Shown piece by piece: positions 28,932 to 31,659 of a stretch of 64,000 nt of DNA. The position numbers were made by a program, and so were the translations under genes. The notes under the pieces were generated by a model that saw nothing but the letters and a program-made list of their open reading frames with translations, did not search any database and was not told where the DNA came from. Within the stretch, counting starts at the first letter, position 1. Every line of letters begins with the position of its first letter. Source of the stretch: a bacterium (GTDB taxonomy: Bacteria > UBA8248). The stretch spans positions 1,504,001 through 1,568,000 of the forward strand of contig CBDBBI010000010.1 in NCBI GenBank assembly GCA_965202625.1, read 5' to 3'.

Positions 28932-29763
28932 TTCTGGCTCATCACCCCTCCAGCAGGGTCATAAACCCTGAAATATCGTGCCCATGCCGCTGACGCTGTC
29001 TGGAGTATCACCCCTCCAGCAGGGTCATAAACCGGGGGACTGACCTTAAGCTCCGGAAAGCAGGTCTGGAGTATCACCCCTCCAGCAGGGTCATAAACCG
29101 AGGGGGCGCGGCCCGGTCACATCGTGTGCGTGTCTGGAGTATCACCCCTCCAGCAGGGTCATAAACCACTTTTTCCAATTTATTATTGTGGATGTTGGTC
29201 TGGAGTATCACCCCTCCAGCAGGGTCATAAACCTAGTTTTTCCAATTGATAATAGTTGACGTTGGTCTGGAGTATCACCCCTCCAGCAGGGTCATAAACC
29301 CCTTCTTCAGTACGAGTTACGCTCGAGGCTGTCTGGAGTATCACCCCTCCAGCAGGGTCATAAACCAAAACTAGCCCTTCTCACGCCGGCTGCTCCGTCT
29401 GGAGTATCACCCCTCCAGCAGGGTCATAAACCAAAACTAGCCCTTCTCACGCCGGCTGCTCCGTCTGGAGTATCACCCCTCCAGCAGGGTCATAAACCGC
29501 GCTTCGCCGAGCGCTTCTCTTTCGTCAAGGTCTGGAGTATCACCCCTCCAGCAGGGTCATAAACCAGGTCAACTTCTCTTTCCTGGGCAGCATCTGTCTG
29601 GAGTATCACCCCTCCAGCAGGGTCATAAACCTTTCTATGCTGTGAGCGTCCGCCACTCCAAGTCTGGAGTATCACCCCTCCAGCAGGGTCATAAACCCGG
29701 AGCGGCTTCAAGGGCTGCCGGATCGGGGTCTGGAGTATCACCCCTCCAGCAGGGTCATAAACC
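28932..29763 (-). CRISPR. CRISPR array, 13 repeats of 36 nt (GGTTTATGACCCTGCTGGAGGGGTGATACTCCAGAC on - strand), 12 spacers of 30-32 nt
   Basis: 12 identical repeats starting at 28998, 29064, 29132, 29198, 29265, 29331, 29397, 29463, 29530, 29596, 29662, 29728 plus a degenerate terminal repeat at 28932; AT-rich leader on the effector side. Confidence 0.98.
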
Positions 29764-29847
29764 CCGTTTTCCATAAATCATTGTTTCATATATGGCTGTG
29801 CTGATTTTATCACATCAGAAAACAACGTCACATGGCTTTTTCCTGTT
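29764..29847 (-). promoter_or_regulatory. CRISPR leader
   Basis: 84-nt AT-rich segment between effector stop and first repeat, opposite the degenerate repeat. Confidence 0.7.
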
Positions 29848-31659
29848 TTATCCTCCTTTTTTCTTCCGTCTTTCGCCGCCACGTTTCTCCCTGGCGGCGC
29901 GGGCGATGTTCTTCGCCGCGTTCTCATCGCGATCGTGTGCCGCGCCGCATTCTGGGCAAGTCCAATGGACTTCCGACCCGAGTTCGTCGTTCGGAACACC
30001 ACAACCAGAACACGTTTTCGACGTATACGCAGGGTTGATTTTGACGACCGCTACCCCCTCGCGTTCGGCGCAATTTTTAATCGCGCCGAGGAATTCACTG
30101 AGCGCGACGTCAAAGCGCTGGCTGCGCGCCTTGTCGGGAAGCTCGTTATCGACGTCGCGCACCTCGGCGAATTGCCTCAGATCGATATCCTCCATACCAA
30201 TCGGCAGGCCGAGCGTCACCATCCTTGACGCGGCGATGCGATATATCTCCCGCCGCCAGCCCAGGGTTTTCCTGCGAAGGCCGTGCATCTCCCCGTAGAG
30301 TTTGCGGGAGCACTCCCGCCAGCGCAGCGTCTCCTCCTCCACTTCGGCAGGCAGATTCCCTCTATTTCTGCGAATATCTCCACCCAGCTTATAGGCCATC
30401 TCAAAGTTCAGGGTAACGTTCGCGGGGAGTTTCACTATCTTGCGGACCAAGCCGTTCACGAGATGCTTCTCATCCAGGGACGCCACAAACGCCTTGAGGC
30501 GAGGTTGAATGAAGCGTCCCAGCCCGGCGGCGCTGTCATCCAGATCCCCTTGAATCTTTTCGACGCGCTTCATGCGGGCAACGAGCTCTGGGGGCAACGT
30601 CACGTGCTGAAATTCCCAACCGGATGCGCTTTCCGCGGCAATCGTCGCAACGCGCAATTCTTGATCGCGCATCTTCTTGAACCCGATGTCCACGCCAAGC
30701 GCTCTGGCTGATGGATCCTCCGGCGGCGTGACAGCCGGCACTCTCACGGAGAAGTTGACCGTATACCTGAACCTGTCGCCCACCCGCCTACGCAGCAGCT
30801 TGGCGTTGTTGATCTGCGCACCCTCGGGAATGGGCCGGTGCAAATGGAGGTGAAATTCCGCATACACCTTGCTCGCCTTTCTCGCACCGCCCGCCACTTT
30901 CGCACGAAGCCGCACCACGGGAGAACCGCCCCGGAGCGCGGCGGGCGCGAGCCTGAAGCTCTCGCTGGCCTTAATTTCGCCGCGCAGGATTTCCTCGAAA
31001 GTCACTCCGTACTTCGTCTCGCCCTCGCCCGGACGCTTGAATCTATAGAAAATAAACCCCGTCCCATCGAACCTGTGAAACCGGAGACGACTCTTCGGAT
31101 TATCGAACGTCCTGCCCCGCGCCTCCTTGAAATATCGGGCGGTCTCATTCGCCGTTGGGCCATTCAGGCAGCCCGTGTTCTTCACTCGCTGGGCCGTTTG
31201 TACGCGCTCGTTAAAATCTCCATTGAGCGCCTTCTTGTCGATGCGCTTGTCCGCTTCCTTCCGATGCGGCTTGATCTCCGCCCACAGCTCCCCTCTCCTG
31301 TCTTTCAGTTTGCTGATTTCACGGTTGGCCCTCTTGATGAGCGGATGGCCGGCATCCCGCGTTTTGGCCTTCTTGCGCGCGTCGCGCTTGCGCACATACG
31401 CCTCGCGAATCTGAAGTTCCACGGCGTCAATCTTCTCGTCGACCTCACGGTATCCAGCATCGGCCGCGCGTCTCGCGTTCTTGTATTTATTCCTTGAATC
31501 CTTATCAATTTCGACGAGTTTGTTCCACAGATCGTTTCTCCGACGTAATTCATCCACCCCCGCCTGGGGAAAAGGATCGACGAACCTCGCCCTGCCTGTT
31601 TTGGAATCAATCGGCACGGCGCCGTATTGATAGACGCGGGTTGTTTCTTTTTTTTCCAT
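29848..31659 (-). CDS. compact type V CRISPR effector, Cas12m (V-M/V-U1)-like, 603 aa
   Basis: N-terminal RVYQYG..ELRRRNDLWNKLVEI, long basic helical insert, RuvC-I LGVDIGF, RuvC-II GMEDIDL, Zn finger CSGC..CPEC, RuvC-III HDRDENAAKNI; directly adjacent to array. Confidence 0.85.
   Translation of the reverse strand: MEKKETTRVYQYGAVPIDSKTGRARFVDPFPQAGVDELRRRNDLWNKLVEIDKDSRNKYKNARRAADAGYREVDEKIDAVELQIREAYVRKRDARKKAKTRDAGHPLIKRANREISKLKDRRGELWAEIKPHRKEADKRIDKKALNGDFNERVQTAQRVKNTGCLNGPTANETARYFKEARGRTFDNPKSRLRFHRFDGTGFIFYRFKRPGEGETKYGVTFEEILRGEIKASESFRLAPAALRGGSPVVRLRAKVAGGARKASKVYAEFHLHLHRPIPEGAQINNAKLLRRRVGDRFRYTVNFSVRVPAVTPPEDPSARALGVDIGFKKMRDQELRVATIAAESASGWEFQHVTLPPELVARMKRVEKIQGDLDDSAAGLGRFIQPRLKAFVASLDEKHLVNGLVRKIVKLPANVTLNFEMAYKLGGDIRRNRGNLPAEVEEETLRWRECSRKLYGEMHGLRRKTLGWRREIYRIAASRMVTLGLPIGMEDIDLRQFAEVRDVDNELPDKARSQRFDVALSEFLGAIKNCAEREGVAVVKINPAYTSKTCSGCGVPNDELGSEVHWTCPECGAAHDRDENAAKNIARAAREKRGGERRKKKGG

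Follow-up and report, generated by a model that had tools for sequence, protein, structure and literature searches.

The CRISPR effectors of subtype V-M, now called Cas12m, are described in the available text of PMC11013384 and PMC10442227 as working with a single CRISPR RNA (crRNA), which they process themselves within the repeat and without a trans-activating crRNA (tracrRNA), and as interfering with their targets through a block of transcription or replication. For orthologs with D-E-D, H-D-D and N-D-D triads, DNA binding dependent on a protospacer-adjacent motif (PAM) and a lack of cleavage of double-stranded DNA (dsDNA) were reported; as far as the accessible part of PMC11013384 records, such cleavage was detected in none of eight orthologs tested, four of them D-E-D. 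MmCas12m2 (8HHL, 8HHM, 8HIO; PMC10442227) and GoCas12m (8PM4; PMC11013384) share what the accessible portions of those papers give as the V-M layout, with about 600 amino acids, a 36-nucleotide (nt) repeat that carries a pseudoknot scaffold, and neither a tracrRNA nor adaptation genes. The locus analysed here lies at 28932-31659 of a 64,000-nt stretch of a bacterial genome of the lineage UBA8248 (GCA_965202625.1, contig CBDBBI010000010.1, positions 1,504,001 to 1,568,000), referred to below as the window. It is very probably a stand-alone type V-M system, in which a 603-amino-acid 'clade 4' Cas12m with a DED triad is paired with its own 12-spacer array.

The locus has the anatomy and the repeat structure of this subtype, an effector of the Cas12m family with an intact triad, no local adaptation genes and one spacer with a perfect protospacer. 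It is a further example of a known subtype, since the architecture, the crRNA fold and the lack of adaptation genes have already been described in the available literature on V-M, and the effector is one more compact DED-type Cas12m from a subtype already mined for CRISPR interference (CRISPRi), base editing and epigenome editing. The effector itself is therefore of modest interest, and the noteworthy parts are that one spacer is directed at cas12c, in a V-C locus that is polymorphic, and that a single genome houses three class 2 systems (II-C, V-C and V-M).

The effector and its RuvC site

The cas12m gene occupies 29848-31659 on the minus strand of the window, and its translation runs through 603 codons with no internal stops. 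The mechanical list of open reading frames (ORFs) also holds a 639-amino-acid version that starts at TTG 31767; the ATG at 31659 is favoured because homologues of 584-601 amino acids align from it. A sequence search of the PDB returned 23vu_A, deposited as 'UnCas12m4a', at E=1.1e-125 over query residues 6-598, followed by 23vw ('CRISPR-associated DNA-binding protein Cas12m') at 2.9e-30, 8pm4 at 1.5e-11 and the Cas12m2 entries 8hhl and 8hio at 5e-9. The top PADLOC model was Cas12u1 (3.6e-71, model positions 4-532 of 533), a former name of V-M, and just below it came a profile labelled Cas12f (PDLC01692, 1.3e-69 over the full length). Pfam recognized the C-terminal Cas12f1-like TNB domain alone (PF07282, 1.1e-20, residues 522-585), a domain in which the window protein carries a CxxC...CxxC zinc ribbon. 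An AlphaFold2 model built from 29 homologues (pLDDT 84.6, pTM 0.68) places the helices of a long recognition (REC) insertion at residues 32-186. Its four best fold matches in the PDB were all Cas12m (8hhl, 8pm4, 8hio and 8hhm; template-modelling (TM) scores 0.61-0.73), with Cas12f (TMq 0.33-0.46) and the TnpB entry 8iaz (0.38) lower down, in a fold library that runs to April 2026 and in which 23vu was not among the matches. These results support for the window protein the Cas12m fold, bilobed and made up of WED, a helical REC insertion, RuvC and TNB. All of the tests that were run agree, and they support placing the protein in Cas12m (V-M, formerly V-U1) and not with transposon TnpB, a placement made from E-values, profile scores and fold ranks.

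The initial annotation, made from the sequence alone, had called the gene a Cas12m effector, and this call was borne out by the full-length PDB and PADLOC matches, as well as by the comparison of the predicted structure with Cas12m that it had proposed as a check. The N-terminal VY.YG and LWN.LVE motifs on which it drew are present and invariant in the 29-sequence alignment described below. Its description of a new compact effector oversold the novelty, as an ortholog with 42% identity has a deposited structure and the traits of the locus are published for V-M. Supplementary Table S1 of PMC11013384, according to the part of that paper available, contains 134 Cas12m variants and may include close relatives of the window protein.

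Of the described proteins, UnCas12m4a (PDB 23vu, 23vv; the name is the depositor's) is most like the query: the match is full-length, the size is similar (604 amino acids untagged), and the two share the CxxC...CxxC zinc ribbon and, where the RuvC domains align, the D..E..D residues. One database homologue (P0052) differs from the 23vu sequence at 1 of 604 residues; its identity to the query is 42%, so that 58% of the residues differ. A 10-residue insertion near the N-terminus of the query (IDSKTGRARFVD) is absent from UnCas12m4a and common to only two other homologues (P0006 and P0008). MmCas12m2 and GoCas12m, the best fold matches, have a structure-based sequence identity to the query of just 17-18%. 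Their RuvC triad, as given in the available text, is H-D-D where the query has D-E-D, and their hosts are Actinobacteria whereas the relatives of the query are found mostly in metagenome-assembled genomes (MAGs) of Alphaproteobacteria. An assignment to type V-F (Cas12f) was rejected on the NCBIfam Cas12f2 score (51 bits against a cut-off of 450), the TMq of 0.33-0.46 and the absence of an anti-repeat in the flanks scanned (see below).

The zinc ribbon and the RuvC fold also bring the protein close to TnpB, and the C-terminal core is indeed shared with ISDra2-type TnpB (8BF8, 8EXA). That the gene is the TnpB of an IS200/IS605 or IS607 element which lies by chance beside a repeat array can nevertheless be given next to no credence. 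The NCBIfam model guided_TnpB reached 99.7 bits against a cut-off of 100, the PDB TnpB 8bf8 matched at 3.9e-11 over residues 516-590 (about 75 residues), and some homologues are labelled 'transposase' in their sources. These TnpB matches are confined to residues 450-590 (450-587 for guided_TnpB), whereas the Cas12m match is full-length, and the more specific models stay far below their cut-offs (IS200_TnpB 49.9 against 425; IS607_TnpB 50 against 350). No Y1 transposase (TnpA) was found anywhere in the 99.69%-complete genome, in which cas12m is single-copy and the TNB domain occurs once, and the layout of gene followed by array, with a covarying repeat, is kept in 6 of 14 related loci. The TnpB reading was rejected on the missing TnpA, the single copy and the sub-cut-off TnpB scores; the locus further differs from an IS200/IS605 TnpB in having a CRISPR array instead of an omega-RNA and a long REC insertion.

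A word-indexed protein search gave 70 proteins at E<=0.001 among 8000 scored candidates, the window's own gene included. The four closest are 65-67% identical and about fifty other full-length ones 38-53%; nearly all are metagenomic, and they are either unnamed or labelled 'transposase'. The window protein thus sits in a mostly metagenomic clade in which its nearest neighbours are only 65-67% identical. From the 70, 29 were picked to span the range of identity and aligned. The RuvC residues D324 (in GVDIGF), E490 and D578 (in HDRDxNAA) are invariant in all 29, as are four cysteines, D576, V9/Y12/G13 and L44/N46/L48/V49. Within 'HDRD' it is presumably D578, and not D576, that is the catalytic aspartate, going by TnpB motifs. 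The clades of Cas12m are reportedly defined by Wu et al. 2022 (Mol Cell). In the available text of PMC10442227, Cas12m is split into four clades by triad, with DED under clades 3 and 4 and with DED, DND or NED as the triads of clade 4. The query is put tentatively in this last clade, going by the '4' in the name under which 23vu was deposited.

An invariant DED triad in a family that is reported not to cut raises the question of what the active site does. In its discussion, as far as accessible, PMC10442227 allows that clades 3 and 4 might hydrolyse DNA, and a DED-type Cas12m could be a true RNA-guided nuclease or nickase that cuts with its intact RuvC site. Besides the invariance of D324/E490/D578 in 29/29 clade members, this would fit with the target locus of spacer 1 (see below), which is missing from the main chromosome path, target loss being the usual outcome of self-targeting by a cleaving system. 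We consider cleavage unlikely, although it keeps some weight. The four D-E-D variants among the eight orthologs showed no detectable dsDNA cleavage in the available part of PMC11013384, and Cas12m2 did not regain cleavage when its HDD was changed to DED, according to that of PMC10442227. The conserved triad could instead serve binding of the non-target strand or RNA processing, and the contig that bears the protospacer occurs in the same sequencing run (X1) as the V-M locus.

The array, its repeat and the predicted crRNA

Downstream of cas12m and co-oriented with it, the CRISPR array (28932-29763, minus strand) holds 13 repeat copies and 12 spacers, with the repeats 66-68 nt apart from start to start. 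Twelve of the repeats are identical 36-mers that end in AGAC on the gene's strand, and these 12 are the only exact matches in the 3.09-Mb assembly (backwards control, 0). The thirteenth, at the trailer end (28932-28967, minus strand), is degenerate and differs at 4 of 36 positions. The spacers measure 30 nt (nine), 31 nt (two) and 32 nt (one). Between the stop codon of cas12m and the first repeat lies an 84-nt leader (29764-29847, minus strand). In this anatomy the initial annotation was fully reproduced on re-measurement, from the 603-amino-acid gene and the co-oriented array 84 nt on to the 12 identical repeats, the single degenerate one and the spacers of around 30 nt. It had also noted that cas1, cas2, cas4, a transposase and an anti-repeat were absent nearby, with which profile searches and an anti-repeat scan against shuffles agree. 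There is no cas1, cas2 or cas4 in the window; elsewhere in the genome there are two Cas1 hits, one Cas2 hit and no Cas4 hit. The anti-repeat scan of 27000-28931 and 29764-33000, a test of sequence only, gave scores of 9-12 against shuffle maxima of 13-17. An Rfam scan of 27500-33000 had nothing above threshold, and its sole long non-coding RNA match (21.7 bits, E=0.14) was taken as chance.

The structure of the repeat was examined in an alignment of seven sequences, the window's repeat and one from each of six related loci. The pseudoknot tested consists of a 3-bp stem I (columns 10-12 with 21-23) crossed by a 6-bp stem II (columns 15-20 with 29-34). Pairing was found in 63/63 cells, and eight of the nine pairs have changes on both sides. 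None of 500 column shuffles equalled the observed pairing, covariation score or double-change counts, which make up four of the five measures; the fifth, 'further pair types', was equalled by 73 of 500. When the partners were slid by 1-3 columns, pairing fell to 27-52%. These figures come from only seven sequences, and the structure was derived from the same repeats. A minimum free energy fold of the single sequence (-13.6 kcal/mol, z=-2.2) shows a hairpin like stem I only, because the pseudoknot is not representable there. The window repeat is thus predicted to form a stem-plus-pseudoknot crRNA scaffold of the Cas12m type, and the four changes of the degenerate repeat fall on the 3' arm of stem II.

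The available text on PmCas12m (bioRxiv 10.64898/2026.03.26.714355) gives a crRNA with -28..-26 paired with -17..-15 and -23..-20 with -6..-3, and the register of the window repeat is nearly the same (-27..-25 with -16..-14 and -22..-17 with -8..-3). The triad of PmCas12m in that text is N-D-D, unlike the D-E-D of the window protein. Read along the gene's strand, the repeat carries its structured handle at the 3' end, which fixes the direction of transcription and agrees with the position of the degenerate repeat at the far, trailer end.

By homology with the described Cas12m proteins, transcription of the array would start in the 84-nt leader and run in the direction of cas12m, and Cas12m would bind each 36-nt repeat through the pseudoknot near its 3' end. 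The precursor would be trimmed to crRNAs of about 50-60 nt with no need for a tracrRNA, and the effector may then bind tightly to PAM-flanked dsDNA, so that transcription or replication of the target is blocked and the DNA is not cut. In this scheme we infer that the effector binds without cutting and processes its own crRNA, and likewise the PAM and where the spacers come from.

Related loci were sought by a scan of 185,579 species genomes, which found 14, mostly in MAGs of Alphaproteobacteria. An array directly follows cas12m in six of them; a period of 66 was measured at L014, L015, L017 and L021, and L018 and L022 gave one exact match of the typed 36-mer. The remaining eight include several truncated contigs or partial matches. 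Three of the related loci (L016 at 2770-2810; L019 and L020 at about 2240-2280 and 2487-2527) have a single degenerate repeat-like element after cas12m and no array, and these elements may be decayed arrays or stand-alone cr-like RNAs. Among 41 other genomes of the same family a Cas12m-like gene was found in two, both of the same genus. These two genes, in the loci L032 (G014:C1:1911537-1915646) and L033 (G025), are more distant, 42-43% identical over residues 250-600, have one in-frame TGA and stand beside a short array whose repeat contains a CCCCTGTGCG...GGGG motif. The distribution of Cas12m in the sampled family is patchy, as expected of a mobile defence locus.

The degenerate elements at L016, L019 and L020 are one of the reasons to ask whether the window's system could itself be decaying or orphaned, a fossil array that no longer acquires spacers beside an effector kept for some other role or on its way to being lost. 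The locus has no adaptation genes, a detectable target is lacking for 10 of the 11 distinct spacer sequences, and one of the spacers arose by duplication, not acquisition, since spacer 5 (29433-29462) and spacer 6 (29367-29396) are identical 30-mers that flank one repeat. Such decay is improbable. Twelve identical repeats with the trailer copy alone degenerate are the polarity expected of growth at the leader end, all 30 nt of the leader-proximal spacer match DNA present in the same sample, which suggests recent acquisition, and the ORF is intact with all of the family-invariant residues. Hints of activity come from the identical repeats, the intact ORF, the invariant triad, promoter-like sites, contigs from RNA libraries and the match of spacer 1, and they fit with the stand-alone V-M system proposed above.

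The identity of spacers 5 and 6 was not part of the initial annotation, nor was the likeness of two AT-rich spacers, 8 (29234-29264) and 9 (29168-29197), which agree at 23/28 positions and look as if they had been acquired separately, from variants of a single target. An origin of spacers 8 and 9 in the leader, with whose last 30 nt they have TGGAAAA in common, was not significant in shuffles (p=0.17 and p=0.09).

Spacer 1, the V-C locus and the II-C system

The leader-proximal spacer 1 (29698-29727, minus strand) is the only V-M spacer that matches its own genome over more than 17 nt, and its target is a gene of another CRISPR system. It matches the minus strand of C6:3574-3603 at 30/30 positions (E=4.7e-11). 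C6 is a 9.8-kb haplotig with a V-C locus (L012, 1560-7878) that encodes a Cas12c of 1272 amino acids (NF033950, 1081.7 bits) and a lone Cas1 of 341 amino acids, together with an array of 30 repeats of 25 nt and spacers of 18-19 nt. V-C loci typically combine short spacers with a lone Cas1. In cas12c the protospacer is in the middle of the gene, where the crRNA would pair with the coding strand, and is flanked by ...TTTCCCGGAA on the 5' side and TGAAAAGG on the 3' side. None of the 29 V-C spacers has a match in the genome outside its own array. Neither these nor the 77 spacers of the II-C system described below match the V-M locus; apart from one II-C spacer that matches the haplotig C3 (see below), their matches are of 15-19 nt.

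The 6 nt directly 5' of the protospacer (CCGGAA; C6:3604-3609) agree at 4/6 positions with those that close the V-M repeat (CCAGAC; window 29728-29733), which stretches the BLAST match to 36 nt at 94% and is located exactly where a PAM would be read; this likeness is probably due to chance.

One end of C6 matches C10:2033469-2034972 at 99.8% identity and the other C10:2027851-2029840 at 99.2%, and because its ends match C10 it is a haplotig and not a plasmid. In the corresponding interval of the main path (C10:2027851-2034972, L028), 3.6 kb with three ORFs replace cas12c, cas1 and the array, and one solitary V-C repeat is left. Two of the three replacement ORFs have partial hits to BrxC/BrxD ATPases, and the difference between C6 and C10 looks like a defence-island swap between co-existing strains. 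Most of the contigs C1-C9 are variants, 84-99.8% identical, of stretches of the 2.9-Mb C10, with C4 overlapping C5 instead. From these small-contig variants it follows that the assembly, which measures 3.09 Mb and is rated 99.69% complete, is a mixture of two strains or more, with which its contamination figure of 4.69% agrees. Tandem repeats, found also at several sites of C10, make up most of C9 and of the tail of C3.

In run X1, which also has the V-M locus, the protospacer stands in its cas12c surroundings on a contig of 2838 bp. The leader-proximal position of spacer 1, the perfect 30-mer and the presence of target DNA in the same sample point to a recent acquisition. What the spacer does is open to several readings: it could silence a resident cas12c, it could predate the loss of V-C, or it could keep V-C from being acquired again from sister cells. 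Fourthly, spacer 1 may be inert as the flank holds no PAM. V-M and V-C are both known as DNA binders rather than cutters, and here they are joined by a perfect match between spacer and target.

For the supply of spacers, the search of the rest of the genome for cas1-cas2 that the initial annotation had called for turned up, outside the locus, a II-C Cas1-Cas2 module in addition to the V-C Cas1. The II-C locus (C10:~2381960-2391444; L013 6961-16445) encodes Cas9 (a 1037-amino-acid ORF; TIGR01865, 705 bits), an Nme-type Cas1 (227 bits) and Cas2, with the Cas1 hit at C10:2.385 Mb. Its array, in which 77 spacers of 29-30 nt separate 78 identical 36-nt repeats, shares the 36/30 geometry of the V-M array. 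New V-M spacers would have to be supplied by adaptation genes in another part of the genome; such supply in trans, which the initial annotation had proposed, is plausible, and the II-C Cas1-Cas2 is the best candidate, linked to the V-M array by circumstantial evidence. Two chromosome-level relatives with V-M arrays (G042 and G043) also carry Cas9-Cas1 loci with 36-nt repeats and a period of 66; in three fragmentary relative MAGs no Cas1 was seen. One of the II-C spacers, spacer 30, matches the haplotig C3:14066-14095 at 27/30 positions.

Taken together, it is conceivable, though on balance doubtful, that the V-M array is an active client of the II-C Cas1-Cas2 with its newest spacer directed at the effector gene of the co-resident V-C system. 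If so, the spacer could silence cas12c where V-C is kept, as Cas12m binds without cutting, or the lineage in which a BrxD-like cassette replaced V-C could have been favoured by it or could now be guarded by it. In both cases one CRISPR system would, in nature, be targeting another inside a single bacterial population. With three class 2 systems in one genome and a V-C target locus that is polymorphic in the population, the strains are a natural setting in which the supply of spacers in trans, and self-targeting by a CRISPR system that does not cleave, could be tested.

Contrary points and genomic surroundings

A number of observations weigh against the stand-alone V-M system as proposed, or against parts of its mechanism. 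The strictly conserved DED triad and the suggestion in the accessible discussion of PMC10442227 leave 'binding only' not secure for this clade, and a literature search by name gave no paper on UnCas12m4a. The 5' flank adjacent to the target in cas12c is neither T-rich nor C-rich, unlike the Cas12m PAMs in the available published text, one protospacer being too few for a PAM to be inferred. The other 10 of the 11 distinct spacer sequences had no match in the searches run. The whole array had no match in the 'phages' collection, and its match in 'plasmids' (a Tistrella plasmid, 29 nt, 93.1% identity, E=0.2) was treated as chance. It was also unmatched in the 41 other genomes of the family, none of which shares the window's array, and six spacer patterns (two 30-mers and four 5' parts of 22 nt) gave 0 matches in viral contigs, in exact-match scans that miss diverged protospacers. 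The link between II-C adaptation and the V-M array is circumstantial because the two repeats are unlike in sequence and the 36/30 geometry is common. Contigs from RNA libraries are a hint only and not proof of transcription, as DNA can occur in such libraries.

The contigs in question come from metatranscriptomes (two runs of one study) and cover 28884-29026, 29064-29160, 29834-29993 and 31291-31455 of the window with 0 differences. The V-M repeat had 0 matches in Joint Genome Institute (JGI) metagenome contigs. Contigs of run X4 carry cas12m with a few differences and leave the array outside their cover, and those of run X1 end at the repeats, so this coverage permits no inference on spacer turnover or on the phasing of spacer 1 with either haplotype; the missing cover of the array in X1 and X4 is not evidence of absence.

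Two promoter-like sites were found, both on the minus strand. One, from the promoter scan, is in the leader at 29804-29831 (GTGACG-16-TAAAAT, with a TG extension), and the other is upstream of cas12m at 31865-31892 (TTGAAG-16-TATATT), a match to the consensus alone (9/12 positions) and not functional evidence. The V-M locus is adjoined by a LysR regulator at 32035-32928, and the other neighbours, gltB and gltD (the large and small subunits of glutamate synthase) and a glycine-zipper lipoprotein, are all ordinary. Just past the glutamate synthase genes lies a Fic/DOC-family protein of 490 amino acids (window 39165-40637, minus strand; PF02661, 8.2e-18). On the other side, the minus strand at 20862-24344 encodes a Type ISP/IIG restriction-modification enzyme of 1160 amino acids (Type_ISP_C, 2.7e-78; PADLOC REase_MTase_IIG, 1.2e-269), some 4.6 kb past the trailer end of the array; together with the V-M locus it makes up a small defence cluster.

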